Of a stretch of 64,000 nt of DNA, positions 26,915-62,067 are shown one piece after another. The stretch comes from an uncultured Clostridia bacterium (GTDB lineage Bacteria; Bacillota; Clostridia; TANB77; CAG-508): the NCBI GenBank assembly GCA_934141445.1, contig CAKPCF010000003.1, forward strand, positions 34,196 through 98,195, in the 5' to 3' direction. Positions within the stretch are counted from its first letter, which is position 1; every line of letters begins with the position of its first letter. The translations under genes and the position numbers were made by a program. The notes beneath the pieces are model-generated. The model saw only the letters and a program-made list of their open reading frames with translations, made no database searches and had not been told where the DNA came from.

Positions 26915-26921
26915 AACAAAG

Positions 26922-36037: not shown

Positions 36038-36084
36038 TTTTATTCCTCTTTCGTTTTTATAATCTAATATTCCACTTTTTTATC

Positions 36085-36113: not shown

Positions 36114-36151
36114 TAGGAATTATTAACAAAATAATATTTTTTTCTTAACAC

Positions 36152-36193
36152 AAAAATAAACCTACCTTGCTAAATATTTAGCAAAGTAGGTTT
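36152..36193 (-). terminator. rho-independent terminator ending the long T4SS-like operon
   Basis: Near-perfect palindrome 36158-36193 (aaacctaccttgctaaat/atttagcaaagtaggttt). The minus-strand RNA is followed by UUUAUUUUU. Confidence 0.7.
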
Positions 36194-36210
36194 TAATTTA
36201 ATTATTTATT

Positions 36211-39200: not shown

Positions 39201-40404
39201 TTGTTAAATGTACTGCTAACAAAAATTCTAATGGTATACCATAACGAGCTGTCCATCCATCTAAGCTGTATGTAAATGTACCAATTGCTTTTTGATTTGA
39301 TGCTATTTTATCCATAATTCCACTTTGAGTGAATAATAATCCAATTGCTGAATCATTATCATTTTCTGCTGTGTTTGTATCTTTTGATGTGATAGATAAA
39401 GTTTTATTCTCAGCATCAATAGTAATATCATATCTACTTCTAACGCCATTTCTATAAGCATTTCCCTGTTGTCCAATTTTTCCTTCTTTTTGTAAGTTTA
39501 CATCCTCTTCATAAATTCCAATCAATCCAGAACCATAATCATTAGATGTAATTTTTCCTAGTGAAACCATATATTTTAGAGTAGACCAAGCAGCATCTAA
39601 AAAACTACTCAAATCTGCAAAAATATTTCTTAAGTTTGGATTAAAGTTTCTACAGCAATATACATAATTATCAGAAAGTAAATATGTTCTTATTATTTCA
39701 CTATCTATATTAGTAATACCTTCTGCAACTCTACCAATTCCATTTTCATCAACATAAGGTTCATTTGTAGCCATCTTTTGAAGTTTTGTTTCTTCTGTTT
39801 CTGTTAATCCCTCAGTTGCTGTTCCATCAGAATTATCTGCACTATCACTTTTGATTTTTGCTAATTCCGCCATATATTTACTACTTTTAGCATCATTAAC
39901 TTTTCCAGTTAAAAATCCATATTCGTATAAATCATAACCCATACTTTCTATGTAATCTGCTACATCTATTACATCTTTTTCTTTTATACGGGTTTCTTCT
40001 TGACCTAGAACATCATCCTTTAGTTTATCAAAAATTGCTACTAGTTCATTACCTACATTTTTCATTATTGCATTTAGTTTTCCCATCAATACACCAGGCA
40101 TTGTTAATACAAACATTATTATACCAATTATAATAATAAATGCTACAATAACTAAAATGATTATCCATAATTTTGGTAATATTACCTTTAAAATTGAAGA
40201 CACAACTGACATTGCTTTAGTATTACTCATTTTTTGCAATACTTTTTGGCTTCGCAGTTTTTGGTTGATAAAGTTTTTGGCCGTATTATTAGCTTCACTA
40301 GTTGTTTGGCTACCTGTACTTTCTTCTTGTGATTCAGTTTGTCCACTTTCTACATCTGCATTTTCATCATTTGTTTCATCTTCTTCATCATCTAAATAAA
40401 ACAA
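36211..40404 (-). CDS. giant (1397 aa) membrane-anchored multi-domain cell-wall hydrolase, PrgK/CwlT-like, paralogue 1
   Basis: Same architecture as 31886-36037: VIDCSSYVAWVLYEYG, VHHIQIIKE, VTPITGEIIEAGT...GNYIRLILR and acidic termini. Apparent TTG start behind an AGAGGTGA RBS. Confidence 0.7.
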   Translation of the reverse strand: MFYLDDEEDETNDENADVESGQTESQEESTGSQTTSEANNTAKNFINQKLRSQKVLQKMSNTKAMSVVSSILKVILPKLWIIILVIVAFIIIIGIIMFVLTMPGVLMGKLNAIMKNVGNELVAIFDKLKDDVLGQEETRIKEKDVIDVADYIESMGYDLYEYGFLTGKVNDAKSSKYMAELAKIKSDSADNSDGTATEGLTETEETKLQKMATNEPYVDENGIGRVAEGITNIDSEIIRTYLLSDNYVYCCRNFNPNLRNIFADLSSFLDAAWSTLKYMVSLGKITSNDYGSGLIGIYEEDVNLQKEGKIGQQGNAYRNGVRSRYDITIDAENKTLSITSKDTNTAENDNDSAIGLLFTQSGIMDKIASNQKAIGTFTYSLDGWTARYGIPLEFLLAVHLTSMSPDLAVDLATSFDTEVVVLLHKVEYSIKGGFLKAENSLGNSGDRVTYDKLKQYKEAGGYGAVLAYTPNSFKSSDCSSGCKEKAILESKDSKVQSGEKEFSDVCSECKSFIDDTMSDLQKLSLGENTTFYPYISKVTDHWFRDVYFVAPEDMKVVRNDYDYELQTKERWTSYEMNDDGTYKLYKLNDDGELTDEVYNGTKEDAEKEGIKVAKKAMTQSIKDEAEGVSNAAIFGENMWSAYDVEVPETEWMSLKAFIEMVKAALDAAGLPGDQFEQMCKDLLKSDFEDLWMCIDLSAIPTQVQDAQRTETNATIKRIFSTNKYYQYDGTQERARAIEKDKEDTKRERKLDNTAEDKRDQSLIGSFSVTRDSLTAFNILTNMNTFDSDSIYRDFKELIVELNYFDKEDLTQIPTSIGEWLLPETSSAGWPIKKYDKNENYYGTLIHSKADLANLRERDDVLNPIIGAGETDGNEPTAPDVEDGTTGDSNVLELATTVEKKLPEKNEQDNVINLELVNPVAGLKAVYAADINGSGSGLQRDTLLDTAQAVWEYIVDAKKYSYGAPGTGAPYQNSSVIDCSSYVAWVLYEYGYEEFGQTAYNTSSFMNTDWSAKYGWEEIDIEAGEDCRSQLQPGDILVRRSPTEPAKVHHIQIIKEIAPNGDIITYDCGDKPHWSTDHRDGFRYNSFAGGANAPGKIIRIENAVNKFTGFNGYEDVVTPITGEIIEAGTTEIENIETNQKENVGFIKIRAINKSDVEAYINENDENYEGYKYFYEEYETAGITDYILYIEGFDLRIVDQNLSLLNDSAIMGKTTDENGNETSTGQIANMYTREIYDSTLTKATRERLEEIQDKMEQALSVIQTSDGKIFVKAGTVLGKTYTDAGTPTSSSEEDTQEFPADAKARPGIATMEKKTDTSDDGQTYNLPNGNYIRLILRTSEDGANGTANKDTILENVEDYLEIATASSSNDSDDEETENDENVDDSEENNDSDTSSDSQT

Positions 40405-44619: not shown

Positions 44620-44641
44620 AACTACCACCAATCTCTCCTAT

Positions 44642-47600
44642 CTATTTTCTTCCTTTTCCAATTTCTTCTATCAATGCTGATATATCTGTCATTGGTCGTT
44701 CTAATCCTGAATTTAATTCTTTACTTTTAATTGTACCATTCTTTCTTCTTTGTGTCACTATTTTTGGTGAATTTTGTCCATTTGTATTTGCTATACCTTG
44801 ATTTGCTCCACTTGCTGTTCTTCTTTGTGCACCATTTCCATTTTGTGCTCCATTTGGAGTAAATAAATTATCTCTTACTGATGTATCTTGTTCACCAACC
44901 CTACTTTCTGGATTATCAGTATCGCCTCTATATTCTCCAAACATTGAATTACCTTTTATCCTATTTAATGAATTAACAACATCTTCCGTATTACGTGGAT
45001 CAAATTCAAGATGTTTAGCTTGTTTTCCTTTTCCCTTAATTTTAGCTGCTCTTAAATTGCTCTTTTCAATTTCAGTTGTTAAGTATGCAAATTCTTGTAC
45101 AGGTTCTGAAACAGTTGAAATTAGTTCCTCTCTTCTTTCTTCGTCTTTTTCTGCTATTACTGCTGCTAACATATCCGCCATATCTTGATGTCTTTTTTCT
45201 TCTATCAATCTTTTCATTTTTTCTGATGTGGCATCGGCAGTATTACTACTTACACCAGTACTATTTAATCTAGTAAAAGCTTGATTTCTTGCTTGTACAG
45301 CAGTATTTACAGTTTCTTCAATACTCTTTCCACCTAATACTGGGCGTGCAACTTTTCTTGTATCATCTGATGGATTAACTTGTCCAAACATTGGTGTATT
45401 ATCTAATTTATTTTTTGGAGTTCCACCAGAATTAGAAATTCTTTTCTTTTTCTCTGATAGATTATCCAAAACAGATGTAGTCTTATTAGGTACAGCTTTT
45501 ACCCAATTTTCTAGTTTTTGTGTTGCTCTTTCTTGTACATCATTAACATTCAAATCTCCAGCTGTTTTTATATCATTTTCATCAATTATTTCTTGGAAAG
45601 ATTGTGTTGTAAATTCTTTTACAACCATATCAGCTTTTACTTTTTCAACTCTAGTTTTTAAAGCTTTTACAAGTTCTTGTTTTTCTTCTTTAGTTGCATC
45701 TTTACCTAAAACAATACTTTGTAATTGTTTTTCAATAGCTTCTTCACTTGTATCATTAGTTGTAAAATCAGAAATTGCTTTTTTACTATTAGCTGCTGCC
45801 TCTACAACAGCTTGTTCAATCATTTTATCTGTTACTAAAATAGTTTTATTATTTACATTTACCACTGTAGCTGTTGCATGTTCATCATTACCATCTGATA
45901 CTTGTTTTCTATCTTCATTTGAAAAAGCATTTATTATTTCTTCAGCTGATGCATAATTTTGTGCACTGATTCGAGAACCATTTATTTCACCTATTACATT
46001 TGGATTTTGAATCTTCAATTTCATAAGTTGATTTGCAAATTGCTCTAAAGTCATATTAGCTGCTGCAACTACAACTGGTTCATCAATTTCATCAGTTGTT
46101 TTCTTTTCTTCAAGAGCTTTTGTCATATCTTTTACATCTTGTTCTTTATCAGTTGTTGGAACATACAATCCATTAACTTCAACTGCATTTCCAGTTTCAG
46201 CTACTGCTTCTCTATGAATCTTGTCTTTATCATCTTCAACTTTACAATACTCAACAACTCCAGATTTAATTGCATTTTTCAAAGCAACTCCAAGTACACG
46301 TTCTTCTAATCTATATGTTGCATCATTTATCTCTGAACTTGTATTTAATAGTTTTTCTCTTTGTGTATAACCATAACCGCCACTTCTTGTATATCTATAA
46401 CCTTCTGGTTTATTCTTTCTTGTTTGTGCTCCTCTTATTAAACTTGCACCAAAAATATTTCCAGTTGCTATTACAGAGCCTTTTGCAAGAGCTTTTACAA
46501 ACTTTTGATGTTTTGTTGATATTTCTTTTACTATATATTCATCTTTAGCAGACTCTACTTGTACACGAATTTGTCTTGTAACATTTTGTACATCTTCATT
46601 AGTAAATCCAGCATCATTTTCTATACCACTGCTTGGCATATATTCTGCTTTTCCACTCTTCTTGATATAGTCATAAGTTTTAGATATTGAAGCAAGTGAG
46701 CCAAACATTGTTGAAAAACCAATAACTGGATTTTCTACAGTTGTTGGTATAGATGTTACCATTCCCAAAAATCCTGTTAACAAGTTTTGAATTGCATTTA
46801 CTTCATTTCCTATTATCTCTTTATCAGTATCATTCATTCCAGTTAAAGCTTTTAAATTAACATTATCAGCAATTCTTTTCTTTAAGCTATCTTCTGTTAA
46901 TTCATCTCCTGAAAACAAACTTTCAGCAAATGATAATTTCTTTCTTTCTACATATTTAACTTTACCATTCTCATCTGTAACATATCTGCCTTTATATTTA
47001 GTTCTAAATCCTACATATTTTCCTTTTTCTTCATCATATTCAACATATTTCCTTGGGTCAAATACTTCTTTAATTTTTTGATTCATTGCAAAAGTTCTAG
47101 CAAATTTAGTTTTAGAAAATTTATCATTTAATTGTTTTAATTTTTCTTCTTCTATTTTTTGAGTATCTTGTGCATCTTTCTTTTCTGTTTCAAGAACTTT
47201 AATTTCATCTTCTGAATCTTCATTCTCTTGTTCTAGTTTAGCTATTTCAGCTTCAGCTGCATCTATATCTTTTTCTAATCCTTTAAGAATTTTTTCTTTT
47301 TTCTTTTTTATTTTAGCCTTATTTTCTCTAATTTTTTTCTTATTATTTTGTATTTTCTTATCTTTTGCGTCTACAGCTTCTCTTGCCTTATTTACATTCA
47401 TTCCTTGGTCTACAATTTCTTTTACATCTTCATTATTTTCAAAAGATTGGTATTCTTCTTCTGTAAAAGCTGTTTCATTTCCAGCAATATCTTTGTGCAT
47501 TTCTTCATTTTTTGGATTATTCTCCATGCTATTCATTCTCCATGCCATAACTCCACCAAAAGCTTTTCTAGCTGGATTATAAAATAACTTTTCTCTCTCC

Positions 47601-48628
47601 CAATTAGCAATATTTCTTATTGCTTTTCCACCAATGTATGCAGTTGTTAAGCTCTTGAAATTATTCATTAACTCTCTACCAACATTTCTGTCTGCAATAT
47701 CATCTACTAAGCTTCCACTTCCACCAAATGCAAATATCTTTCTGAAGATTTTATCTGCATTACTCATAAAGCTTAATAACATAAACGCAAGTAACATACC
47801 TGAAATTGAGTTTAAAGATAATTGTAAAGCATTCATTACAAATGTTACATAAATAATAGCATGTACAGATTGAAGAATAACATTTAAAAAGTATTCTTTA
47901 ATCCATGTTGAAAATATTTTTGTTTTTCCTGATAAAACTTTGTTTAAAGCATAAGAAACAGCAACAGCTGGTGCCATTAAAGTTAGTACAGCCACTGTTA
48001 AATATCTCTTAAAATATATAAATACAAATTTGTAAGAATAATATACTAAATATGCATACATAACAAGACCAGATGTACCATTTACAAGTTTTGGATCATA
48101 GGCTCTTGTTCTAATCGTATCATAAATACTTACTTCTATATCTTCATCTGTCTTTTGAGTATTATCTCGATTATCAGATGTTGTTAATGAACCATACTCA
48201 GATGGTTTAGCATTATATACTGCAGCTGCTGTATCTTGAACCATTTCTACTAGTAATTCGTTCATATCTATAATAAATAACATTATATAATGTATACCAA
48301 AAACTAATACCATACCTGCAGCCCAATCCATAAGCAATCTTTTATAATATGCTTTATCAGATGCTACTGATGATATTGCTAACTTAATACCAATAAAAAT
48401 CAGTACCAATAACATAATTACTATTGATACTACTCTTATAATATAATACCATGTTGCAATTGCTTCTTTTAAAATAAGTACTGTATTTATTCCTTCACTT
48501 TCTGTTGAAGATGCTCCACCTTCACTTGCTTGCATTGGCTCAGCAAAAGAAAAAGTAGGTAAAATAACAATAATTGCAAAAACTACTATTATAAATAAAA
48601 TTATATTTTTTTTACTACTTCTCATCAT
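44642..48628 (-). CDS. VirB6/TrbL-like polytopic membrane protein with about 1000-aa K/E-rich coiled-coil extension (paralogue B)
   Basis: Signal peptide, core motif IATWYYIIRVVSIVIMLLVLIFIGIKLAISSVASDKAYYKRLLMDW and about 6 TM helices. These are followed by a long hydrophilic region with KKIQNNKKKIRENKAKIKKKKEKILKGLEKDIDAAEAEIAKLEQENE. Confidence 0.5.
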   Translation of the reverse strand: MMRSSKKNIILFIIVVFAIIVILPTFSFAEPMQASEGGASSTESEGINTVLILKEAIATWYYIIRVVSIVIMLLVLIFIGIKLAISSVASDKAYYKRLLMDWAAGMVLVFGIHYIMLFIIDMNELLVEMVQDTAAAVYNAKPSEYGSLTTSDNRDNTQKTDEDIEVSIYDTIRTRAYDPKLVNGTSGLVMYAYLVYYSYKFVFIYFKRYLTVAVLTLMAPAVAVSYALNKVLSGKTKIFSTWIKEYFLNVILQSVHAIIYVTFVMNALQLSLNSISGMLLAFMLLSFMSNADKIFRKIFAFGGSGSLVDDIADRNVGRELMNNFKSLTTAYIGGKAIRNIANWEREKLFYNPARKAFGGVMAWRMNSMENNPKNEEMHKDIAGNETAFTEEEYQSFENNEDVKEIVDQGMNVNKAREAVDAKDKKIQNNKKKIRENKAKIKKKKEKILKGLEKDIDAAEAEIAKLEQENEDSEDEIKVLETEKKDAQDTQKIEEEKLKQLNDKFSKTKFARTFAMNQKIKEVFDPRKYVEYDEEKGKYVGFRTKYKGRYVTDENGKVKYVERKKLSFAESLFSGDELTEDSLKKRIADNVNLKALTGMNDTDKEIIGNEVNAIQNLLTGFLGMVTSIPTTVENPVIGFSTMFGSLASISKTYDYIKKSGKAEYMPSSGIENDAGFTNEDVQNVTRQIRVQVESAKDEYIVKEISTKHQKFVKALAKGSVIATGNIFGASLIRGAQTRKNKPEGYRYTRSGGYGYTQREKLLNTSSEINDATYRLEERVLGVALKNAIKSGVVEYCKVEDDKDKIHREAVAETGNAVEVNGLYVPTTDKEQDVKDMTKALEEKKTTDEIDEPVVVAAANMTLEQFANQLMKLKIQNPNVIGEINGSRISAQNYASAEEIINAFSNEDRKQVSDGNDEHATATVVNVNNKTILVTDKMIEQAVVEAAANSKKAISDFTTNDTSEEAIEKQLQSIVLGKDATKEEKQELVKALKTRVEKVKADMVVKEFTTQSFQEIIDENDIKTAGDLNVNDVQERATQKLENWVKAVPNKTTSVLDNLSEKKKRISNSGGTPKNKLDNTPMFGQVNPSDDTRKVARPVLGGKSIEETVNTAVQARNQAFTRLNSTGVSSNTADATSEKMKRLIEEKRHQDMADMLAAVIAEKDEERREELISTVSEPVQEFAYLTTEIEKSNLRAAKIKGKGKQAKHLEFDPRNTEDVVNSLNRIKGNSMFGEYRGDTDNPESRVGEQDTSVRDNLFTPNGAQNGNGAQRRTASGANQGIANTNGQNSPKIVTQRRKNGTIKSKELNSGLERPMTDISALIEEIGKGRK

Positions 48629-48648: not shown

Positions 48649-49122
48649 TTACTCTGCATCAGATTCTTCATTATTTGTTGTATCTGAAAAATTAAATATA
48701 TTAACATCAAAAATAGGAATTTTATTAAAAACTATTTTTTCAATTGTTACTCTATTATCAACATCTGTTATACTTTGAAATACATCAAAAGCTAAAAGTT
48801 TATCACTTGTTGCCATATCTGTTTTACAAATTGCATCAATTGTTCTAACCAAAACCCATTCAAATAACTCAATCCAACCTACAAACACAGCTCTAATGCC
48901 CATTGTCATAATTCCTAAAATCCAGTCTGCAATTCCTGCTAAAATATCTACTATTGTCTTTCCTCCTTTAGCTGAAACTGAATATGAAGAAGTTGATGTA
49001 CCTTTATAATAAAAATCATCAATCTTTCCAGCTGCATAAGTAGGAGCTGTGGCAAGGAATGTTGAAAATGTTGTTACAATTATTGCAATTACTAAAATTT
49101 TTACTAATATTGTTTTTTTCAT
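48649..49122 (-). CDS. small secreted/2-TM protein equivalent to the N-terminal module of the VirB6-like paralogues
   Basis: Signal peptide, hydrophobic hairpin, then IVFNKIPIFDVNIFNFSD. This matches TVFNEIGLFNIDYFDFSD (422-aa protein) and FFNQVPLLDIDFMNFNSG (887-aa protein). Confidence 0.5.
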   Translation of the reverse strand: MKKTILVKILVIAIIVTTFSTFLATAPTYAAGKIDDFYYKGTSTSSYSVSAKGGKTIVDILAGIADWILGIMTMGIRAVFVGWIELFEWVLVRTIDAICKTDMATSDKLLAFDVFQSITDVDNRVTIEKIVFNKIPIFDVNIFNFSDTTNNEESDAE

Positions 49123-49150
49123 AATTTACTCCTTTCCACTTAATCTTTAA

Positions 49151-50695
49151 TTAAAAATTTATTTGAATTTCTTTATTATCATATTTTAATAAATTATTAT
49201 AACAGCTTTCAATTTTAAATTCTTGTTCACCTGTTAAAATCTTTCCTCTTTTATCTGCCTGTAAATCATAATAATATATGCCTTTTTTATTTATACTATA
49301 TATAAAAATGCTATCACTAAGCCATGTAAAAGTATCTATTGCTTCATTTATTTCTCTATTTGGTCTTGTATCGTCTTTTGAAACAAAATACATTGTTTCT
49401 ATTATATTGTTTTCATCTTTATCTGCATAAAATCCATATAAACTGCTATATAAAGTATTACTTTCAGTTTTATTTTCATCTATAAATTTATTACAATTTG
49501 CTAACAAGCTATTTGCTTTTGATACTCTTGCAACTTCATCTTCAAATACATTATCTACTTGCATTTGTGCTAAACATTCTGGCATATCCAAGCATTTAGA
49601 TGATTGAAAACTTGTCATTTTCACATTATTATATAGAATAATTGCATTAGTATTTTCGTAATTGCATTTTACAGAAATTCCTTGTAGTGGATATGTTATA
49701 TAGAAACTATTCTCCTTAACTATATATTCACTATAATCGCTCCATAAATATGTAAGCTTGTTCATAAATTGATATATATCTGTATCTCCATTTGAAAATT
49801 CTTCTACTAAATTTATAAATTCTTCATACTCAACATTATCAATTCTATAGATTGAAATTTCATCTTTAGTAACAAATATATAAAAATCTTTTCCTTTATA
49901 ACCATAAACACCATTTTCCGTATCTTCAAAAGCTGGTGTTCCCAGTTTTGTTTTTGCAACATCAAAAGCCTCTCTTACCATTATACCACTAATTACAGGA
50001 TTTGTGTAGTTCTTCGTAAAAACAATATTGTATATTTTTTGATCTAGTTTTCTTATTTTTAATCCTTTTTCTGTATATTGTTCATATTTTTGAAAAATGC
50101 TATCATAATTTCCTATATTCAAATTAAAATATGACCAATTATTATCTAGTAAATTTCTTAGCTCTTCAGCATTGACTTCAAATATAGTTTCTTCAATTGC
50201 CTTATAATCTTTTAAACTAATTTGTGACTTAATATAAGTAAAATAATCTTCAATTCCATTTATATAAAATTTGCTGATACTATTGTTAGCACAAATAACA
50301 CTAACTGTTATATTATTTTTTTCATCTATAATTCTAAAATTTTGAAAATTTAAGACACTTGCAGAAAATTGTATAAGTCTTGTATAAAATAATTCATTTA
50401 TATTATCATCATCTTCATAAGGTATCTCTGAAAGAGTTGCATAAATATCTACACTATAATCTTTTTCAATACTTTTTTCTTGTTTTATAAAAGTACAATT
50501 ATAATATTTTAATACATCTTCTATTGTTTTAAATGAATTTATATCTATTTCATTTAATTCAGTATTATCCGAAAAATCAATATTTGAAATTGCATAATAA
50601 GTAACAGCTAATGATATTACTACACAAAATAATATTATTAGCATTTTTTTATCATTATTTTGATTATTATACTTTCCTTTTTTCGAATTAAACAC
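49151..50695 (-). CDS. N-terminally anchored extracytoplasmic protein, paralogue of 50707-51930
   Basis: One TM. Shares blocks with its neighbour (DVLKYYNCTFIKQEKS / LLEDYGCVFIKEVKS; GYKGKDFYIFVTKDEISIYR / GYRTKDLYVFVYEDEISAYG). Confidence 0.5.
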   Translation of the reverse strand: MFNSKKGKYNNQNNDKKMLIILFCVVISLAVTYYAISNIDFSDNTELNEIDINSFKTIEDVLKYYNCTFIKQEKSIEKDYSVDIYATLSEIPYEDDDNINELFYTRLIQFSASVLNFQNFRIIDEKNNITVSVICANNSISKFYINGIEDYFTYIKSQISLKDYKAIEETIFEVNAEELRNLLDNNWSYFNLNIGNYDSIFQKYEQYTEKGLKIRKLDQKIYNIVFTKNYTNPVISGIMVREAFDVAKTKLGTPAFEDTENGVYGYKGKDFYIFVTKDEISIYRIDNVEYEEFINLVEEFSNGDTDIYQFMNKLTYLWSDYSEYIVKENSFYITYPLQGISVKCNYENTNAIILYNNVKMTSFQSSKCLDMPECLAQMQVDNVFEDEVARVSKANSLLANCNKFIDENKTESNTLYSSLYGFYADKDENNIIETMYFVSKDDTRPNREINEAIDTFTWLSDSIFIYSINKKGIYYYDLQADKRGKILTGEQEFKIESCYNNLLKYDNKEIQINF

Positions 50696-50706
50696 TAAAT
50701 TACTCC

Positions 50707-51930
50707 TTAATCAATTTCATTTGCTCTACGTTCTTTTTCTAAATTATATAGTGCATCTTCTGTTGAAACTAATGTTATTTTTCCCTCTGTAATATATCTT
50801 TTAGTTGTAGCTGTAAAATAATAATTTGAATACAACTTTATTCCTATTGGATTGTTATTTTCTATATCAATCATTACTCCTATAGCTGGATATGATAGAT
50901 GTAATCTTCCACTATCAGCATCATATTCAAACTCTTCATAACTTTGCCATAATGCTGTTACCTGTTTTACAAATAAATCTAAATTTCTATTTTGAATATA
51001 ATCACTTAAATATGTTTCAAATTTTGTATGTTCATAATAGCTATATCCATAAGCAGAAATTTCATCTTCATAAACAAATACATATAAATCTTTAGTTCTA
51101 TATCCAAGCATTCCTTCTGAAACACTACCAAAAGCATTATCAGGATATTCAGTTTTTACAACCTTTAAAGCTGTACCAACTTTTATATCATGTAATACAT
51201 TTTCTTCAAAATTTGATAAGAATACAATATTTCTAACTTTTCCAGCAGAAACTCTTGCTTTAATAGTTCTATTCAAATAATAATTATATCTCTCATCAGC
51301 TGTACTTCCTTCAGAGTTTCCAAAATCACTTGAAATAAACATATTATTGTTAACTAATTTAAGAAGAATATTATATGTAGTTGGTATTGACTGATATTTA
51401 GCTATTTCGGTATTTTTTTCTACTTCAACATATAAATCACCATCTAATTTATCAAAATAATTATTTTGGTTATTTATTTTATATGATAATTCCCCTTTTT
51501 CCAAATCGCAATTTATTTCTATCTGTATGTCTTTGTTAGAATCATATAAGTAAAATCTAGTTACAGATAATTTTTTTGAGCAAGCATTTATTAAACTTTC
51601 AAAATACTCTCTATTATTTGTTCCATCTTCATTATATAGATTTTTACCAAAATACAAATAAATTGCTTCTGTTGGTGACTTTACTTCTTTAATAAAAACA
51701 CAGCCATAGTCTTCTAATAAAGTTTTCATATTGCTATATGTAGCACTATTATCATAAACAGAATTTTCTAAATCTTGTTTATTTACTTGTTGATTTTCCA
51801 GTTTCTGTTTATTCTCTTCTTTTCTTATAATTACCAATAAAATAGAGGCTAATATAAATAGTATTATAAAACTAACTATAATAATTATTTTTATTACTTT
51901 GTCTGTTTTCATATACTTTTTATATTTCAC
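50707..51930 (-). CDS. N-terminally anchored extracytoplasmic protein, paralogue of 49151-50695
   Basis: One TM (IIIIVSFIILFILASILLVII); shared blocks as listed for the 514-aa neighbour. Confidence 0.5.
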   Translation of the reverse strand: MKYKKYMKTDKVIKIIIIVSFIILFILASILLVIIRKEENKQKLENQQVNKQDLENSVYDNSATYSNMKTLLEDYGCVFIKEVKSPTEAIYLYFGKNLYNEDGTNNREYFESLINACSKKLSVTRFYLYDSNKDIQIEINCDLEKGELSYKINNQNNYFDKLDGDLYVEVEKNTEIAKYQSIPTTYNILLKLVNNNMFISSDFGNSEGSTADERYNYYLNRTIKARVSAGKVRNIVFLSNFEENVLHDIKVGTALKVVKTEYPDNAFGSVSEGMLGYRTKDLYVFVYEDEISAYGYSYYEHTKFETYLSDYIQNRNLDLFVKQVTALWQSYEEFEYDADSGRLHLSYPAIGVMIDIENNNPIGIKLYSNYYFTATTKRYITEGKITLVSTEDALYNLEKERRANEID

Positions 51931-51942: not shown

Positions 51943-53211
51943 TTAATGTTTTCCTTTAGGTTTTCCAATAGCATTCAAGTGATCTATTGTTTTACTATTA
52001 TTTAATCCAAATATATTTCTTACCATTTTTTCAGCTGATGGTATTGCCATAAAGAATAACAATCCAAACATTGGAGCAAACTTTACAATTTCTCCTGCTG
52101 TAAATGCAAATATTATATATAAAATTGCATGTATTGGTTGAATAAATATATGTATAATCAATTCTTTAAACCAAGCACTAAATGCCTGTGCTTTATTATC
52201 TCCCATTTTATCAATTGGATATGTTACTGTTATAAATGGAGATATAACTATTAGGAATCCTAGCATAATTGTTCTTTTCATATACAATAAGAAAAATCTT
52301 AAATGTGAAAACGCAACACACCAAAGCATTAAAGTTAATATCATAAGCTGACTACCAGAAGATGTAAATAGCTTAACCATTAAATTATTTACAAAATCTT
52401 GCTCAAAGCTTTCTGCACCTGCAGAACTTATTGCAATTTTTATTTTATATGTTATATCTACTAATAATTTTCCTAGTACCATTATTGCTTGAATAATGTA
52501 TTGTAACATAAATAATATGATTATTGATTCAACCCATGCTATAAGCATCTTTTTATATTTTGCTCTATCTGAAGCTACTGTTGACATTGCCATTCTAATT
52601 CCAACATAAATTAAAACTAGTAATGAAATTGCAAGTGACAATATTCTAGCTATATAGAACCATTTAGCAACATTTTCTTTTATACTAATCATAAATGTTG
52701 GCACTGGAACATTAGTATCTTCAGCATCACTTACTCCACCAAAAAAATTATATTTTTTTACCGTATCACTAAAATCAAAATAATCGATATTAAATAATCC
52801 AATTTCATTAAATACTGTTTTTTCTATAGTAAATGAAAACTTATTTTGCGAAGTATTTAATGTATTTAAAATATCTGTACCACTAGCACTAACAACTGTT
52901 AATAAAATTTCTGATGTAAGTGGTATTATATTAAGTAGCATACACACAATTCCTAATACAGCATTTAAAGCAGAACCTGTTGCTGAAAATATGTCAAAAT
53001 TTTGTGTTTTCCCTGTTCTTGGATCAGATGTACTACCTTCATACACTAAATCATTTATCATGTTATTACTATATGCCATATTCTGCTGTCCAACTTTTGG
53101 AATTTTACTTGTTGCAGCATCTGTTTCAGCAGTTTCAGCATAGCAATAACTAGTAAATATGAAATTAAACAATATTAGCACACATATAAGTGACCATAAT
53201 ATTCGTTTCAT
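51943..53211 (-). CDS. VirB6/TrbL-like polytopic membrane protein (paralogue A, minimal form)
   Basis: Signal peptide, extracytoplasmic N-domain, core motif VAKWFYIARILSLAISLLVLIYVGIRMAMSTVASDRAKYKKMLIAW, further TM helices and the block YPIDKMGDNKAQAFSAWFKE (compare YSIDKIGDQRAQALNTWMKE in the 887-aa protein). Confidence 0.55.
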   Translation of the reverse strand: MKRILWSLICVLILFNFIFTSYCYAETAETDAATSKIPKVGQQNMAYSNNMINDLVYEGSTSDPRTGKTQNFDIFSATGSALNAVLGIVCMLLNIIPLTSEILLTVVSASGTDILNTLNTSQNKFSFTIEKTVFNEIGLFNIDYFDFSDTVKKYNFFGGVSDAEDTNVPVPTFMISIKENVAKWFYIARILSLAISLLVLIYVGIRMAMSTVASDRAKYKKMLIAWVESIIILFMLQYIIQAIMVLGKLLVDITYKIKIAISSAGAESFEQDFVNNLMVKLFTSSGSQLMILTLMLWCVAFSHLRFFLLYMKRTIMLGFLIVISPFITVTYPIDKMGDNKAQAFSAWFKELIIHIFIQPIHAILYIIFAFTAGEIVKFAPMFGLLFFMAIPSAEKMVRNIFGLNNSKTIDHLNAIGKPKGKH

Positions 53212-56881: not shown

Positions 56882-57274
56882 TTAGAATTTTTCTACAATT
56901 GAAATAACTATCTTCCAAATGAAATATGCTCCAAAAATAACAAACCCTGATACAAGTAAACCAATTAGTTGTTGCTTTAATTTAGCTTGACCTTCTGGAG
57001 TAGCAGTAATATATTTAATTCCCATATATAAAGTAACTGCAACTAAAATACCAGCACCAATAGTTGTTAAAATAGAACCTAAGTCAACTAAATCTTCAAA
57101 AATATTTGCTCCATTTACATTACCTGCTCCAGTTTGCCCTTTATTCAAAAAAGTTTGTGTTTGGTTTTGCATCTCACTTAATGTTAGAGCTTCTACTTTT
57201 GATGTATTTACTAATGATAAACTTATTATAAAAAATGCTATCAATGTAATTAAAACTTTTTTTGTTATTCTCAT
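56882..57274 (-). CDS. VirB2/TrbC-like pilin-type protein, paralogue P1 (divergent; first gene of the long operon)
   Basis: Signal peptide ending VEA, a variable segment, then a two-helix hairpin LGSILTTIGAGILVAVTLYMGIKYITATPEGQAKLKQQLIGLLVSGFVIFGAYFIW. Confidence 0.6.
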   Translation of the reverse strand: MRITKKVLITLIAFFIISLSLVNTSKVEALTLSEMQNQTQTFLNKGQTGAGNVNGANIFEDLVDLGSILTTIGAGILVAVTLYMGIKYITATPEGQAKLKQQLIGLLVSGFVIFGAYFIWKIVISIVEKF

Positions 57275-57318
57275 TATTGTTCCTCCACATATTATTTCAT
57301 TTAGACAATTATAATTTT

Positions 57319-57347
57319 ATTATAAAGAATTATTGTACATTTTTCAA
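57319..57347 (-). promoter_or_regulatory. sigma-A-type promoter of P1 and the long T4SS-like operon
   Basis: Minus strand TTGAAA (complement of 57342-57347), exactly 17 nt, TATAAT (complement of 57319-57324). Confidence 0.6.
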
Positions 57348-57507
57348 CAGATTTCAAGTAAAATATATATTTTTAATCGAAATGTAATATAGTTTTTTTG
57401 TAATATTTTTGTTAATTTTAAATACTAATTTTTATTTTCTTACGCATACCTAAAAAATTTTTTAATAAAGAATAATTTCATATTTAATTCATAAAAAATA
57501 TTATACG

Positions 57508-57539
57508 AAAAAAGATATGTTAATTAAAACATATCTTTT
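57508..57539 (-). terminator. probable terminator after P2
   Basis: Stem aaagatatgtt(57511-57521)/aacatatcttt(57528-57538) with a 6-nt loop; a short U-tract follows on the minus-strand RNA. Confidence 0.45.
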
Positions 57540-57543
57540 GAAT

Positions 57544-57924
57544 CTAATCTTGATTTCCTAAAACTCCATTTGTAAAATTAGCAACTAAGGCAACTAAATT
57601 CACACCAGCAAATAGTAAAATACAACCAATTACAATTGGCATTGCTTTATTTTTTATAGTAGCTTTTTCTTCAACACTTGATACCATATATTTAGCTCCA
57701 AGTATTGTAACCGTAATAACTGCAATTGCTGTACCACCTAATTGTAGATATCCAATAATATCATTTAAAATTGCATTTACACCTGTATTCGTGCCACCAC
57801 TAGTATCTAACTTTGATACATTCTTCATTGACTCAAGGTCTAATTCAAATCCTGCTGCATTTACATTTACAGCATATATCAAGATAAAAAATATTGTTAA
57901 TGTAATTACAAATATTTTTTTCAT
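57544..57924 (-). CDS. VirB2/TrbC-like pilin-type protein, paralogue P2 (divergent)
   Basis: Signal peptide ending VNA, a variable region, then the hairpin GGTAIAVITVTILGAKYMVSSVEEKATIKNKAMPIVIGCILLFAGVNLV. Confidence 0.6.
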   Translation of the reverse strand: MKKIFVITLTIFFILIYAVNVNAAGFELDLESMKNVSKLDTSGGTNTGVNAILNDIIGYLQLGGTAIAVITVTILGAKYMVSSVEEKATIKNKAMPIVIGCILLFAGVNLVALVANFTNGVLGNQD

Positions 57925-57953
57925 AATCTATCATTCCTTTCTTAAGTTATATT

Positions 57954-58337
57954 CTATTCAACTTTTATGCTATTGTCTGCAAAATCTCTTATTATTGTTA
58001 CTAGGAAACTAGCTCCCATCATTACGACAGCACCTATAACATATACTGTTGCACCTTTTTTGATTTCTGCTCTATCATTTGGAGATGAAACCATATATTT
58101 AATTGCAAGAACTGTTAACATTATAATAGCAATTGCAGCTGTTGCAATTCTTACGGCATCAAGTATTCCAGCAAATAAATTTGTAACTTCATTACTTCCT
58201 TGTAAATTAGATCCACTTGAACCACCAAAACTACTAGTAATCTCAGAACCACTTACAGCAAAAACTTGTGAAAAAATTGCAAATATAAATAAACTTATTA
58301 CTAATAAAATACTTATTTTTCTTATATATTTTTTCAT
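57954..58337 (-). CDS. VirB2/TrbC-like pilin-type protein, paralogue P3
   Basis: Signal peptide ending VFA, an S/G-rich variable segment, then the conserved AIAIIMLTVLAIKYMVSSPNDRAEIKKGATVYVIGAVVMMGA. Confidence 0.62.
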   Translation of the reverse strand: MKKYIRKISILLVISLFIFAIFSQVFAVSGSEITSSFGGSSGSNLQGSNEVTNLFAGILDAVRIATAAIAIIMLTVLAIKYMVSSPNDRAEIKKGATVYVIGAVVMMGASFLVTIIRDFADNSIKVE

Positions 58338-58399
58338 ATAAAATCATTCCCTTCATTTTAATATAAGGTTAGATATTTCCTTTATACACTATTAAATTT

Positions 58400-58428
58400 A
58401 TTATAAACTATTTAAATATTTTTTTCAA
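58400..58428 (-). promoter_or_regulatory. sigma-A-type promoter of the P3-P2 unit
   Basis: Minus strand TTGAAA (complement of 58423-58428), 17 nt, TATAAT (complement of 58400-58405). Confidence 0.6.
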
Positions 58429-58516
58429 CATCAGAATTTAAAATTTATCAAAACCTTTTCTTTTACTGCGTTTTTCTACATATTTTTTATTTTCATAACA
58501 TATATGTCATTTTATA

Positions 58517-58525
58517 TGGTATAAT
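58517..58525 (+). promoter_or_regulatory. extended -10 promoter element for the plus-strand membrane-protein gene
   Basis: TGgTATAAT at 58517-58525, 27 nt upstream of the ATG, with a GGAGG RBS at about 58542-58546. No good -35 element. Confidence 0.45.
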
Positions 58526-58552
58526 AACTAAAAATTTATTTGGAGGTTTACA

Positions 58553-60157
58553 ATGAAAAAAATATCAAAAGATAAAATATTTTTTATTTTTGCATGCTTA
58601 GCAATTGCCTTTTTCACAGCAGCATTAGTTCCAAAAACATTTCAAAATGATACTTTTTTCAATATTTCTATTGGAAAATATATTTTAAATAATGGTATTG
58701 ATATGCAAGAACATTTTTCGTGGGTACCAAATCTAACTTATACTTATTCCCACTGGGCATTTGATATAATTATATATCTTTTATACAATTGTTGGAATTT
58801 TACTGGTATCTATGTTTTTACAATTATATTTTCTGCAATTATAGCTGTTACTTTATTTACTCTATTATCAAAAGCATATAAAACTCCTGTTTCTGCTTTT
58901 TTAGTAACAGTTGTTTCTGTCTTCGTAGTAAAAGATGCATTTACAGCACGTTCGCAAATAATATCTTTCTTATGTTTTATAATTGAAATATATTGTTTAG
59001 AACAATTTATAGAGACAAACAAAAAAAGATATCCTTTAATATTAGTTGCATTATCAATAGTTATAGCAAATTTTCATGCAGCAACTTGGCCTTTAATTTT
59101 AGTTTTATTTTTACCATATCTTGCTGCTGGATTTTTCAATCTAATTTCTTGTAAAAATATTTATACTTTTTTAGCTAATTTTAAAGAAAAACAATTACAA
59201 AAATTAGATATAAATTCTTCTAAGGCAACTAAATGCAAAGAAGATATTGAATATTATAAAAAACTAGCAAAAGATAAAATTTTATCTGATGAATCAAAAT
59301 TAAAATTAAGAAATGACTATAACTTTAAAAATTTAATTATTGTATTTATTATAATTTCACTTACAGGTTTAATCACACCAATACATGGAGTTCCTTATAC
59401 TTACATAATAAAATCTATGACCGGAACAAGTAATTTTGAAAATGCAGCTTCAATTGACTATATTAGTGAGATGCAACCAATTATTCCCGTAGGTAGTTTA
59501 GCATTTTTTGTTTTTTTAAGTTTGATTATTTTTACACTAGCATTCATGCCAACAAAAATAAAAGTAGAACATGGATTTTTAATACTAGGACTTTTAATAA
59601 TGACACTATACAGTAGACGCTATGTATATTTATTAGTTCTACTTGGTGCATTTCCAATTTGTGAACTTATTTCACAATGTGTTAACAAAGATACTGAAAA
59701 ACAAATTGAAAATTCTATATTATCATTTGTATTATGTATATGTTCGGTAATCTTTCTACTTGTAAGTATTTTTAATAAACAAGAAGATCCTTATGTAGAT
59801 GAAACAAAATATCCTACAAAAGTGGTAGATTATATAAAAGAAAATATAGATTACAAAAATATGAGAATTTATAATGATTATGATAATGGAAGTTATTTAA
59901 TGCTGAATGATATTCCTGTTTTCATTGATTCTAGACTAGATGTTTATTGTAGTGAATTCAATAATACAGATGTTTTTAAAGATTATATTTATGTAGTCGC
60001 TGGGAAAGTAAATTATGAAAAGATTTTCTCAAAATATGATTTTACACATATTTTATTATATAAAAATGAAATCGCTAATCAATATATTACAAATGATGCA
60101 AATTACAAATTATTATATGAAGATGAATATTTCTCTTTTTATCAAAAATTAAATTAA
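58553..60157 (+). CDS. polytopic membrane protein, possible GT-C-fold glycosyltransferase, inserted antisense within the pilin array
   Basis: 534 aa with about 12 hydrophobic helices. First loop is FQNDTFFNISIGKYILNNG. The C-terminal soluble part MRIYNDYDNGSYLMLNDIPVFIDSRLDVY recalls uncharacterised ArnT/PMT-like families. The assignment is from pattern memory only. Confidence 0.35.
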   Translation: MKKISKDKIFFIFACLAIAFFTAALVPKTFQNDTFFNISIGKYILNNGIDMQEHFSWVPNLTYTYSHWAFDIIIYLLYNCWNFTGIYVFTIIFSAIIAVTLFTLLSKAYKTPVSAFLVTVVSVFVVKDAFTARSQIISFLCFIIEIYCLEQFIETNKKRYPLILVALSIVIANFHAATWPLILVLFLPYLAAGFFNLISCKNIYTFLANFKEKQLQKLDINSSKATKCKEDIEYYKKLAKDKILSDESKLKLRNDYNFKNLIIVFIIISLTGLITPIHGVPYTYIIKSMTGTSNFENAASIDYISEMQPIIPVGSLAFFVFLSLIIFTLAFMPTKIKVEHGFLILGLLIMTLYSRRYVYLLVLLGAFPICELISQCVNKDTEKQIENSILSFVLCICSVIFLLVSIFNKQEDPYVDETKYPTKVVDYIKENIDYKNMRIYNDYDNGSYLMLNDIPVFIDSRLDVYCSEFNNTDVFKDYIYVVAGKVNYEKIFSKYDFTHILLYKNEIANQYITNDANYKLLYEDEYFSFYQKLN

Positions 60158-60181
60158 ATTTTATTTCTATGCACATATAAA

Positions 60182-60221
60182 AATACTGTTGATATATTTT
60201 CTATTATCAACAGTATTTTTT
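60182..60221. terminator. bidirectional terminator between the convergent membrane-protein gene and P4
   Basis: A 13-bp perfect stem aatactgttgata(60182-60194)/tatcaacagtatt(60205-60217), with a T-run to 60221 and an A-run on the 5' side. Confidence 0.7.
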
Positions 60222-60236
60222 ATATTTTTTTAATTA

Positions 60237-60620
60237 CTATGCCTTTATATTTCCTTCTGCAAATTTTTGAATAATTGTTAAAATTCCAGATGCTGCAAAC
60301 ATTACAACAGCTCCAACTATGTAAACAACTGCATATTTTTTTATCTCTGCTTTTTCGTTTGGTGCTGATGACATATATTTAATAGCCAATACAGTTAACA
60401 TTATTAAAGCTACACCAACTGCTACTATTCTTGCAACTTGTAATATTGCACCAACAATATTAGTAGTTGAACTAGCAGCTGCACTATTATCTGTTTTTCC
60501 ATCAATTGCTGATATTTTGCTTCCAAAATCATATCCATCAGCATATACCATTGGCATGAAAGCACTTACAACAGTAGTGAATATAATTATAGACACTAAA
60601 ACTATACCTAATTTTTTCAT
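60237..60620 (-). CDS. VirB2/TrbC-like pilin-type protein, paralogue P4
   Basis: Signal peptide ending VYA, a variable segment, then the conserved VAVGVALIMLTVLAIKYMSSAPNEKAEIKKYAVVYIVGAVVMFAASGIL. Confidence 0.62.
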   Translation of the reverse strand: MKKLGIVLVSIIIFTTVVSAFMPMVYADGYDFGSKISAIDGKTDNSAAASSTTNIVGAILQVARIVAVGVALIMLTVLAIKYMSSAPNEKAEIKKYAVVYIVGAVVMFAASGILTIIQKFAEGNIKA

Positions 60621-60637
60621 ACTTCTCCTCCTAACTT

Positions 60638-61030
60638 CTAACTAGCTGATATATTGCTAGAGAATTTTTCAATTATTTGTAAAATTCCTGCTGCTCCGAA
60701 TAATACAATTGCACCTACTACATATACAACTGCATGTTTTTTAATGGTAGCTCTATCGTTTGGTGCTGATGACATATATTTGATTGCTAATACAGTTAGC
60801 ATTATTAAAGCTACACCAACTGCTACTATTTTTAGTATGTAAAAAACTGCACCTATTACATTACCAACAGAATCTGCTGCAGCTGAATTTCCAGCACCTT
60901 CAATTGAAGATATATCTGGCATTGCACTTCCTTCTGCAAAGACATTACCTTGAAACGCAACTAATACTGTTGAAAAAATTATTAGTGCTATTGCAAGGAT
61001 CATTCCTTTTTTTAATAAAATCTCCTTCAT
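60638..61030 (-). CDS. VirB2/TrbC-like pilin-type protein, paralogue P5
   Basis: Signal peptide ending VFA, a variable segment, then the conserved VAVGVALIMLTVLAIKYMSSAPNDRATIKKHAVVYVVGAIVLFGAAGILQIIEKF. Confidence 0.62.
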   Translation of the reverse strand: MKEILLKKGMILAIALIIFSTVLVAFQGNVFAEGSAMPDISSIEGAGNSAAADSVGNVIGAVFYILKIVAVGVALIMLTVLAIKYMSSAPNDRATIKKHAVVYVVGAIVLFGAAGILQIIEKFSSNISAS

Positions 61031-61053
61031 ACTTTTTCTCCTTTTTTATATTT

Positions 61054-61425
61054 CTATGCTTGCATGTTTGAATTTACAAATTTTTCGATTATCTGTAAAA
61101 TTCCTGCAGCTCCAAATAGTACAACAGCTCCTATTACATATACAACTGCATTTTGTTTTATTGTAGCTCTTTCATTAGCAGAAGAAGTCATGTACTTAAT
61201 TGCTAATACAGTTAACATTATTATTCCAACTCCTACCGCAACAATCTTCATAATATACAACAATGTTCCAGCTGCTGTTTCTATTGAATTTCCAATTTGT
61301 CCACTATTTCCGTTATCAAAAGCTTTAACATTATAATTGTCATTGCTTGCAAAGCTTGGAATAGATAATACAATGCAACTTAATAACAAAAATATTGTAA
61401 CACAACATATCAATTTTTTGCTCAT
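61054..61425 (-). CDS. VirB2/TrbC-like pilin-type protein, paralogue P6
   Basis: Signal peptide ending SFA, a variable segment, then the conserved VAVGVGIIMLTVLAIKYMTSSANERATIKQNAVVYVIGAVVLFGAAGILQIIEKF. Confidence 0.62.
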   Translation of the reverse strand: MSKKLICCVTIFLLLSCIVLSIPSFASNDNYNVKAFDNGNSGQIGNSIETAAGTLLYIMKIVAVGVGIIMLTVLAIKYMTSSANERATIKQNAVVYVIGAVVLFGAAGILQIIEKFVNSNMQA

Positions 61426-61458
61426 ATCAAGCTCCTTTCAAATTGATTCTTATTATAA

Positions 61459-61487
61459 ATTATATAACATATTTACATTCTTTTCAA
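61459..61487 (-). promoter_or_regulatory. sigma-A-type promoter of the P6-P5-P4 unit
   Basis: Minus strand TTGAAA (complement of 61482-61487), 17 nt, TATAAT (complement of 61459-61464). Confidence 0.6.
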
Positions 61488-61631
61488 TATTATATAAATA
61501 CAATTCCATTAAATATTTTATCTTTTTACAATATTTTTTGTCAATAAATTATACTTTTTGTAATCTAAAAGATATATGAGTAAAAATTTATGTTAAATAT
61601 TCTTCAAATATTCATAATTTAAAAACTGCAT

Positions 61632-61658
61632 AAAAAAAGACTCTCCGCAAAGAGAGCC
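61632..61658 (-). terminator. rho-independent terminator directly after P7
   Basis: Minus-strand RNA GGCUCUC-UUUGCG-GAGAGUC followed by U7 (complement of A-run 61632-61638). It lies 17 nt after the P7 stop. Confidence 0.75.
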
Positions 61659-61674
61659 TTTTTTCTTTTCAAAT

Positions 61675-62067
61675 TTAGTTTCCAGTACCTTGGATATTTT
61701 TTGAAAAAGATTTGATAATTTGTAAGATACCTGAAGCTGCAAATAATACGATTGCACCAACAACATACACAACAGCATGTTTTTTGATATCTGCTTTATC
61801 ACCAGGAGCTGCTGAAATATATTTAATAGCAAGAACTATTAACATAATAATAGCAACACCAGTACCAATGATTTGAACAATGTTAATTAAAGCACCAATA
61901 ATATTTTGTGAACTTCCTGCTGCACCTGAAGTATCGTGTTTGTTATCAAATTGTTTAACATTAAGTCCATCTGTTGTTTGAGTTGCAAATACTGCTTGTG
62001 TTCCAACAGCTACTAACATCATAGCTACTAATAAAATAGCAACTACTTTCATAACTTTCTTTGTCAT
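61675..62067 (-). CDS. VirB2/TrbC-like pilin-type protein, paralogue P7 (monocistronic; candidate major subunit)
   Basis: Start set at MTKKVMKVVAILL (ATG 62065-62067), 7 nt after a GGAGGA RBS (track ORF extends to 62157). Signal peptide ending VFA. Conserved GTGVAIIMLIVLAIKYISAAPGDKADIKKHAVVYVVGAIVLFAASGILQII. Confidence 0.65.
   Translation of the reverse strand: MTKKVMKVVAILLVAMMLVAVGTQAVFATQTTDGLNVKQFDNKHDTSGAAGSSQNIIGALINIVQIIGTGVAIIMLIVLAIKYISAAPGDKADIKKHAVVYVVGAIVLFAASGILQIIKSFSKNIQGTGN

Follow-up and report, generated by a model that had tools for sequence, protein, structure and literature searches.

The stretch of DNA considered here (the window, 64 kb in its full length) comes from an uncultured Clostridia bacterium, has a G+C content of about 27% and carries at approximately 30.3-62.1 kb a block of genes of the type IV secretion system (T4SS) kind, which is flanked on both sides by ordinary chromosomal genes and which includes an array of seven small open reading frames (ORFs), designated P1 to P7 (Table 1). 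With a probability of roughly 60%, P1-P7 are Sec-exported pilins of the VirB2/TrbC type, belonging to a chromosomal, vertically inherited machine of the T4SS kind and serving it as a fixed, co-assembling set. In the initial annotation, seven ORFs of 123-130 amino acids with one shared architecture had been described, and all of them were found at the same positions on the minus strand, each with a Shine-Dalgarno sequence. For P7 a ribosome-binding site supports the ATG at 62067 as start codon, whereas the mechanically called ORF extends to 62157. These ORFs are genes and not chance ORFs, since the same seven-gene array is present in nine other strains and the hairpins of the orthologues in the next species have a dN/dS of 0.09. 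Alignment reveals the claimed AxA-like signal-peptide ends (VEA, VNA, VFA, VYA, VFA, SFA and VFA) after N-terminal hydrophobic segments, with cleavage inferred from the -3/-1 rule, followed by a polar segment of 22-28 residues of which 59-78% are S, G, N, T, A or D, and by a hairpin of two helices of about 38 residues each, hydrophobic according to hydropathy and joined by a basic, Lys/Arg-rich loop. The polar segment, predicted to be exposed, contains a semi-conserved family motif, D.SGA..S..NI.GA.L. An AlphaFold2 model of P5, based on 75 sequences and having a mean predicted local distance difference test (pLDDT) score of 75.6, shows a signal helix and then long helices at residues 49-87 and 90-127.

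The VirB2-like nature of these predicted pilins is well supported by curated Pfam profiles and by the position of the array beside the genes for VirB3-like, TraC-like and VirB4 proteins. Using the Pfam gathering scores as cut-offs (26.6 bits for PF18895, T4SS_pilin, and 27.9 bits for PF04956, TrbC/VirB2), PF18895 is passed by P1 and P3-P7 and PF04956 by P2 and P6, every one of the seven thus passing at least one curated cut-off. A homologue search with P2 returned 12 close relatives, and a tblastn search of plasmids with P5 gave no match. The order of pilin P1, VirB3-like, TraC-like and VirB4 genes is kept in most of the related loci L009-L088, and the presence of both VirB4 and a VirB3/PrgI-like partner, the PrgI match being weak and the position conserved, is as in conjugative T4SSs of monoderms (MPF_FATA type).

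The array is conserved over strains and species under purifying selection. Relatives of VirB4 are found in at least 474 species-level genomes (tblastn at E <= 1e-3 among the species-representative genomes scanned), and the best 80 VirB4 loci, which are 71-98% identical, all belong to uncultured gut Clostridia of humans, ruminants, rabbits and mice. Several of these 80 loci carry the name Candidatus Scatovivens, a taxon of the order TANB77, family CAG-508 (PMC13106387), and the lineage of the genomes with VirB4 relatives is apparently TANB77/CAG-508, with a genome size of 1.8 Mb in one complete relative. Where VirB4 is at least 85% identical to that of the window, a profile built from the seven proteins detects a median of seven pilin genes (range 6-8), and where it is 70-85% identical a median of three (range 0-6), the counts in distant loci possibly being underestimates. 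Two or more copies are present in 55 of the 62 related loci with enough upstream sequence, and the mean identity within these 55 arrays is 36%. The order within the array is also retained, as the VirB3-adjacent copy best matches P1 in each of the related loci examined (L009-L032, 24 loci), in which the second gene is mostly P2-like, the most distal one usually P7-like and the middle copies (P3-P6) lineage-specific. In distant relatives with a single copy, the remaining pilin adjoins the PrgI-like gene.

The setting of the block is that of a chromosome. One flank contains genes for a CNNM-family membrane protein, M16 peptidases, Lgt, PyrB/PyrI, Hsp33, KsgA, a penicillin-binding protein (PBP), MurE and a sortase, and the other an ArsC-family gene and tRNA-Met. 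The sortase and a PASTA-domain PBP within the window, together with an LCP gene in the flank, identify the host as a cell-walled Clostridium. The seven-pilin arrangement recurs on contigs from gut metagenomes (up to 609 kb long), again in this context, and megablast of the region against plasmids gave the tRNA as the only match. No ORF of at least 100 amino acids in the 64-kb window matches a Pfam family of relaxases, coupling proteins or integrases, and the only genuine-looking Walker A motif of the T4SS block is that of VirB4 (GKSGAGKS), a second P-loop ATPase being absent from the block. A mobile element was considered and rejected, given this lack of integrase, relaxase and coupling protein in the window and the same chromosomal context across species; the housekeeping surroundings and the spread over a large clade indicate a locus that looks vertically inherited rather than mobile. 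Elsewhere among the housekeeping genes, at 26733-27620, tRNA-Gly and tRNA-Cys adjoin a RhuM-family gene on the minus strand, and in a matching contig a second RhuM fragment is called beside the RhuM gene; this region may be the remnant of a small island.

Comparison with the nearest other species, whose VirB4 is 93% identical (dN/dS 0.06) and in which all seven pilins have one-to-one orthologues, reveals how the constraint is distributed along the proteins: amino-acid identity is 45% for the signal peptide (dN/dS 0.52), 53% for the exposed N-terminus (dN/dS 0.47) and 84% for the hairpin. The exposed segment hence evolves about five times faster than the hairpin, below neutrality and not faster than the signal peptide. 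Divergence is concentrated in the predicted exposed part with the hairpin conserved, as in multi-copy VirB2 arrays, the signal peptide being equally divergent. Among the paralogues, the hairpin of P3-P7 has a mean identity of 65% (range 53-81%) over 57 columns, rising to 71% in a 40-column core with 18 invariant columns, and identity is 24% in the mature N-terminus, 23% in the signal peptide and 24% in helix 1. The hairpin had been described as almost identical in P3-P7; its contrast with the N-terminus is borne out, but near-invariance is not, since identity amounts to 65-71% and the degenerate pattern given for it is exact only in P4 and P5. Synonymous sites between paralogues are saturated (pS of about 0.55), and therefore the duplications are old and dN/dS between paralogues is uninformative. 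For the same reason a paralogue dN/dS of about 1 was unusable as a sign of positive selection, and recent gene conversion homogenising the hairpins was discarded as well, hairpin DNA being only 64-80% identical with saturated synonymous sites.

Ten strains of the species were compared, and each paralogue has 2-5 alleles among them, P7 having five. Of 177 amino-acid sites in the exposed segments 18 are polymorphic, 12 of them belonging to P7 and five to P1; the hairpins have 9 such sites among 399. No amino-acid change is seen in the exposed segments of P2, P4 and P5 and only one or two in those of P3 and P6, and P7, with 12 of the 23 sites of its exposed segment polymorphic, is the sole copy that is clearly variable between strains; the pN/pS of about 1.2 in this segment derives from small, non-independent counts. 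In sliding windows, nucleotide identity between strains is 93-98% over most of the pilin region, with exceptions of 83-89% in two windows, which cover the P7 N-terminus and the sequence upstream of P1, and 94-96% in the housekeeping flank. Over p422, p407 and p514 it is 84-88%, and in the centre of p1328 73-81%. With the pilins near the level of the flank and the large proteins far lower, hypervariability at the strain level resides in the large surface proteins encoded at 43000-53200 and not in the pilins. The N-terminus had been called hypervariable, which holds between paralogues and between species, where the signal peptide diverges as much, but not between strains; the population data show raised N-terminal variability for P7 and partly for P1, not for P2-P6, and the pilin region as a whole does not exceed the housekeeping flank. 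The proposed diversification of antigenicity or receptor specificity is thus weak, as the exposed segments of P2-P6 are essentially fixed in the ten strains and only P7 and P1 vary. In strain L001, identity to the window is 99.6-100% over the P3-P7 region at 58000-62500 (97% around P6) and drops to 83-96% elsewhere, a pattern indicating a recombination mosaic with one breakpoint between P3 and P2.

The pilin module is not confined to the seven small proteins. The giant protein p1328 matches the pilin hidden Markov model (HMM) over positions 1-124 at E 2.8e-7, a stretch that comprises, besides a signal peptide and a polar segment, a hairpin whose loop reads GIKLAISSVASDKAYYKR. In p422 the match (E 2.1e-7; PF18895 E 0.013) covers residues 181-244, with the loop GIRMAMSTVASDRAKYKK. 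In both proteins the loop motif is as in P1-P7, and the orthologues of both in other species match too. In a search of 1.84 billion representative proteins the pilin family has 5,965 members at E <= 0.001, and the top matches (P0276-P0280) are in-frame fusions of 3-5 pilin modules with one signal peptide and a length of 265-457 amino acids. Such fusions occur on several independent contigs, and one of them (8001-9374 of locus L100, on a contig of 204 kb) is itself a member of a pilin array that precedes PrgI-like, TraC-like and VirB4 genes. This joining of neighbouring paralogues in one polypeptide suggests that the paralogues act side by side in one assembly. Locus L100 also has an unrelated GtrII-type membrane glycosyltransferase adjoining the array.

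Table 1. Coordinates of the pilin genes, their neighbours and the putative expression signals in the window.
Feature	Coordinates	Strand	Characteristics
P1, core pilin, 130 aa	56882..57274	-	PF18895 27.9 bits; VirB4-proximal copy, 42 bp upstream of the VirB3-like gene
P2, pilin, 126 aa	57544..57924	-	PF04956 33.3 bits, E 5.7e-8
P3, pilin, 127 aa	57954..58337	-	PF18895 36.1 bits, E 7e-9
P4, pilin, 127 aa	60237..60620	-	PF18895 27.5 bits; 60% identity to P5
P5, pilin, 130 aa	60638..61030	-	PF18895 32.0 bits
P6, pilin, 123 aa	61054..61425	-	PF04956 29.1 bits and PF18895 27.9 bits, both passing
P7, distal pilin, 130 aa	61675..62067	-	PF18895 33.0 bits; single-gene unit with its own promoter and terminator
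VirB3/PrgI-like protein, 111 aa	56504..56839	-	two predicted transmembrane segments; weak PrgI Pfam match, E 0.032
TraC-like protein, 421 aa	55238..56503	-	single-pass, one N-terminal transmembrane segment; precomputed PF26593 annotation of orthologues
VirB4 ATPase, 663 aa	53230..55221	-	P-loop_TraG, AAA_10, DUF87; solved VirB4 structure 4AG5 at E 4.1e-25
p422, putative VirB6-like polytopic protein	51943..53211	-	8 transmembrane-like segments; pilin-like hairpin at residues 181-244
p157, p514, p407	48649..51930	-	N-terminal transmembrane segments: one in p407 and p514, two in p157
p1328, giant protein	44642..48628	-	most strain-variable gene of the block; complete pilin-like module in the first 124 residues
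p887, polytopic protein	41968..44631	-	8 transmembrane-like segments; in 84/90 loci; no Pfam or PDB match
p1397 and p1383, giant adjacent paralogues	31886..40404	-	one N-terminal transmembrane segment each; weak CHAP match
M534, 534-aa polytopic membrane protein, GT-C fold	58553..60157	+	between P3 and P4, opposite in strand to the pilin genes
Promoter-like site upstream of P1 and the machinery operon	57319..57347	-	11/12 consensus positions; in a 57-nt repeat (D2)
Promoter-like site upstream of P3-P2	58400..58428	-	11/12 consensus positions; within repeats D2 and D4
Two promoter-like sites upstream of P6-P5-P4	61459..61544	-	11/12 consensus positions each
Promoter-like site upstream of P7	62108..62136	-	11/12 consensus positions
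Terminator-like hairpin after P7	61641..61656	-	minus strand after the stop, ggctctctttgcggagagtc, then a T run
Likely terminator after P4	60179..60220	-	perfect 16-bp inverted repeat (I22)

Conservation of the machinery genes was counted in 90 loci, copies of the same species included. The VirB3/PrgI-like gene is found in 87 of them, its equivalents on Bacillus and C. perfringens plasmids being annotated as 'PrgI family', and p157, p514 and p407, each without a Pfam match, are conserved in 42-55. According to hydropathy p422, p887 and p1328 are polytopic; their profile matches are weak, and p422 has a weak NCBIfam match to the Mbov_0396 membrane protein of integrative and conjugative elements (ICEs). 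The CHAP matches in p1397 and p1383 (E 4.6e-4 and 1.6e-3) are below the curated cut-off, and these two paralogues may be candidate duplicated VirB1-like wall hydrolases. A glucosaminidase/G5/SH3 autolysin is encoded next after them at 30302-31714.

M534, which has no Pfam or NCBIfam match, gave an AlphaFold2 model with a pLDDT of 82, whose top Foldseek matches in the PDB are DPY19, STT3, PglB, AglB and ArnT (E 6.7e-8 to 6e-3), and its first loop contains an invariant QNDTF motif. Glycosylation of the pilins is conceivable. A dedicated pilin glycosyltransferase was not adopted as its function, because in relatives the gene lies outside the array, beside the ArsC-family gene, and is found in only 17 of the 90 loci.

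The five best minus-strand promoter-like sites are all located in the four gaps upstream of P7, P6, P3 and P1. Of the two terminator-like hairpins listed in Table 1, the stem after P7 is given by the scan on the plus strand with a T run after it, and a third, weaker terminator-like hairpin can be read after P2 in the sequence. Together these promoter-like and terminator-like sites delineate four likely transcription units, namely P1 plus the machinery genes, P3-P2, P6-P5-P4, and P7 alone. Regions upstream of P1, P3 and P7 (57293-57349, 58374-58440 and 62103-62153) share repeats of 46-57 nt that are 72-75% identical and cover the promoter-like sites: the 57-nt repeat at the P1 site is 75% identical to the region upstream of P3, and repeats D2 and D4 at P3 are common to the regions upstream of P1 and P7. 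This similarity points either to promoter duplication along with the genes or to a common regulatory site. An invertible promoter or other phase-variation switch was sought and discarded, as there are no convincing inverted repeats around the promoters.

T4SSs of monoderm, Gram-positive bacteria have been described as lacking a VirB2 pilin (PMC4027160, PMC12857230), in agreement with the background given in the initial annotation, and reviews up to December 2025 name Patescibacteria as the sole exception and treat a Gram-positive pilus as an open, intriguing possibility (PMC12102498, PMC12857230). In Patescibacteria, arrays of 2-11 divergent pilins were found with PF04956 and PF18895, and one of these arrays is essential (PMC12102498, PMC12857230). 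A limited keyword search of the literature retrieved no paper on pilin arrays in Bacillota or on a T4SS in TANB77, and the arrays of Patescibacteria are the closest described parallel. Like the locus analysed here, those of Southlakia epibionticum and Nanosynbacter lyticus TM7x are chromosomal in a monoderm host, have VirB3/PrgI-like, VirB4 and VirB6-like genes, usually lack a relaxase and contain tandem pilins that match PF04956/PF18895, with paralogues similar in structure and divergent in sequence (mean identity 25% there, PMC12102498). They differ in that the present host, with its genome of about 1.8 Mb, is a classical, cell-walled Clostridium instead of an ultrasmall epibiont, and in that identity within the array is higher here, with its mean of 36%.

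Multiple sequence-variable VirB2 copies on a T4SS are also known from Bartonella Trw (trwL) and from the virB2 paralogues of Anaplasma phagocytophilum; the Trw T4SS has no coupling protein, and in both systems the variation has been proposed to lie on the exposed surface (PMC12102498, PMC12857230). Their hosts, in contrast, are Gram-negative intracellular pathogens facing the immune system, whereas here the copies, with the exception of P7 and in part of P1, are stable within the species. With Agrobacterium VirB2 and RP4 TrbC, pilins of the MPF_T type, P1-P7 share the signal peptide, the two-helix hydrophobic hairpin with a short polar loop, the gene position directly before virB3-virB4 and, in the case of P2 and P6, a passing PF04956 score. 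Unlike these, the predicted mature protein is longer (about 100 residues) and has the polar N-terminal extension of 22-28 residues.

On plasmids of cultured Firmicutes the gene order is again pilin, PrgI-like, a gene of about 300 amino acids, VirB4, VirB6-like and wall hydrolase, with a VirB4 29-40% identical to that of the window and a similar pilin loop motif. C. perfringens pJFP838A has one pilin gene (PF18895 30.2 bits), Thermoanaerobacterium saccharolyticum pMU3262 two adjacent ones (36.5 and 38.1 bits) and C. botulinum p12/29 one with a weak score of 18.2 bits, which is below the cut-off. These genes, at L098 6938-7396, L099 6734-7797 and L091 9099-9482, are directly upstream of the PrgI-like and VirB4 genes. 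Besides, a VirB6-like protein of 864 amino acids encoded on the C. botulinum plasmid gives a weak T4SS_pilin match at residues 87-154 (23.0 bits, E 8.2e-5, below the cut-off). The plasmid systems differ from the array of the window in having one or two copies instead of seven, in being plasmid-borne and in that their pilins are annotated only as 'hypothetical protein'. Finally, the Mbov_0395 family (NF045849) of Mycoplasma ICEs likewise consists of a small, pilin-like T4SS membrane protein in a single-membrane host; P5 matches it weakly (E 2.5e-4, 20.6 bits with a cut-off of 40), and the pilins described here are hence not members of it.

Assembly can be envisaged as follows. Signal peptidase I would cut each prepilin after the AxA-like site, leaving a mature protein of about 100 residues as a membrane hairpin, whose basic loop KY..S.P.(D/E)(K/R)A.IKK would face the cytoplasm and whose Ser/Gly/Asn/Thr-rich N-terminus and short C-terminal tail would face the outside. 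The VirB4, VirB3-like and VirB6-like complex would then extract the subunits and stack them into a filament or a conduit that passes through the thick wall and displays the N-terminal segments on the outside. P1 would represent the ancestral core subunit, probably co-transcribed with the machinery, and P2-P7 old duplicates, which most likely are built together into one fixed heteromeric set, similar to major and minor subunits, and do not replace one another, while p422 and p1328, having the same hairpin module, may dock into or cap the same assembly. A fixed rather than a switching set is suggested by the near-invariant exposed segments (except those of P7 and P1), by the lack of an invertible promoter, by the repeats common to the upstream regions of P1, P3 and P7, by the module fusions and by the hairpins of p422 and p1328. 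As no relaxase or coupling protein is encoded nearby, a non-conjugative role of the machine is likelier than plasmid-style conjugation, and cell-cell contact, uptake and secretion are candidate roles.

Several observations weigh against P1-P7 being a fixed set of filament subunits. Polymerisation into a filament and substrate transport are predictions from the genes. P1 and P4 exceed the Pfam cut-off by only about 1 bit. A Foldseek comparison of the P5 model with the PDB returned generic helical hairpins (best E 0.9) and no pilin among the 50 matches listed, a profile search of PDB sequences recovered no pilin, and hhalign against a shallow alignment of four VirB2 sequences of the Agrobacterium type gave a non-significant E of 0.15, in register, which was not used as evidence. 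Such an outcome is expected for a helical hairpin and makes the comparisons with solved pilins uninformative, and the family assignment therefore relies on Pfam profiles, architecture and gene order. Genes for a coupling protein or a relaxase may lie beyond the window. Within the species, P7 looks relaxed or diversifying, and this variation together with the four separate promoter-like sites, which would permit differential expression, makes an alternative use of the copies possible.

A rival reading, in line with the initial annotation, is that of alternative subunits, only one or a few of which would be expressed at a time, altering the antigenic face or the receptor specificity as has been proposed for Bartonella Trw and Anaplasma virB2. 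Such a role agrees with the concentration of paralogue and species divergence outside the hairpin, with the four promoter-like sites and at least two terminator-like hairpins that make separate transcription units possible, with the polymorphism of the P7 exposed segment (12/23 sites, pN/pS about 1.2) and with the P3-P6 copies being lineage-specific, and not one-to-one orthologues, in most species. It is nevertheless unlikely. The exposed segments of P2-P6 are essentially fixed in the ten strains, with the pilin region no more variable than its flank and p1328, p422, p407 and p514 far more so. Moreover, the N-terminal dN/dS of 0.47 is below 1 and about that of the signal peptide (0.52), no invertible promoter or switch was found, the upstream regions share repeats, and the in-frame multi-module fusions in relatives argue for simultaneous use.

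A rather improbable proposition is that P1-P7 are VirB2 homologues that build no external filament and instead form a membrane-resident part of the channel or a short stalk. Most Gram-negative T4SSs depend on pilins irrespective of pilus production (PMC12857230), the hairpin module is also present inside the polytopic p422 and p1328, and the hairpin is strongly, the termini only loosely, constrained. Yet a buried channel lining would hardly account for seven paralogues whose exposed N-termini are long and polar, and the exposed segment keeps its motif D.SGA..S..NI.GA.L across the family. As for holins, which had been named as the finding that would overturn the pilin assignment, or bacteriocin, immunity or other unrelated proteins with two transmembrane segments, whose similarity to pilins would merely reflect hydrophobic composition, this origin is very improbable. 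It could draw on the Pfam scores barely above the cut-off and on the generic hairpin in Foldseek, but all seven are without a match among the PHROG families, which include holins, no lysin or phage gene is adjacent, two independent pilin profiles match in register, and the position next to VirB3 and VirB4 is kept in dozens of species and on Firmicutes plasmids.

Arrays of up to eight VirB2-type pilins are a fixed chromosomal feature of hundreds of species of gut Clostridia, which contradicts the textbook generalisation on Gram-positive T4SSs and weakens the case for an obligatory acquisition of the Patescibacteria pilins from systems of two-membrane bacteria. The presence of virB2-position pilins on plasmids of cultured Firmicutes makes a T4SS pilus through a thick wall testable in culturable hosts, and the array provides a handle on the biology of an abundant, uncultured gut lineage. 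A more far-reaching and doubtful idea is that the reduced-genome TANB77/CAG-508 bacteria maintain a domesticated, relaxase-less T4SS with a pilus made from a fixed set of 6-8 pilins and pilin-fused giant proteins, as the Bacillota counterpart, and possibly the source lineage, of the pilin-array system on which Patescibacteria depend for their epibiotic life. If true, a contact- or uptake-dependent lifestyle would follow for a large uncultured part of the gut microbiota.

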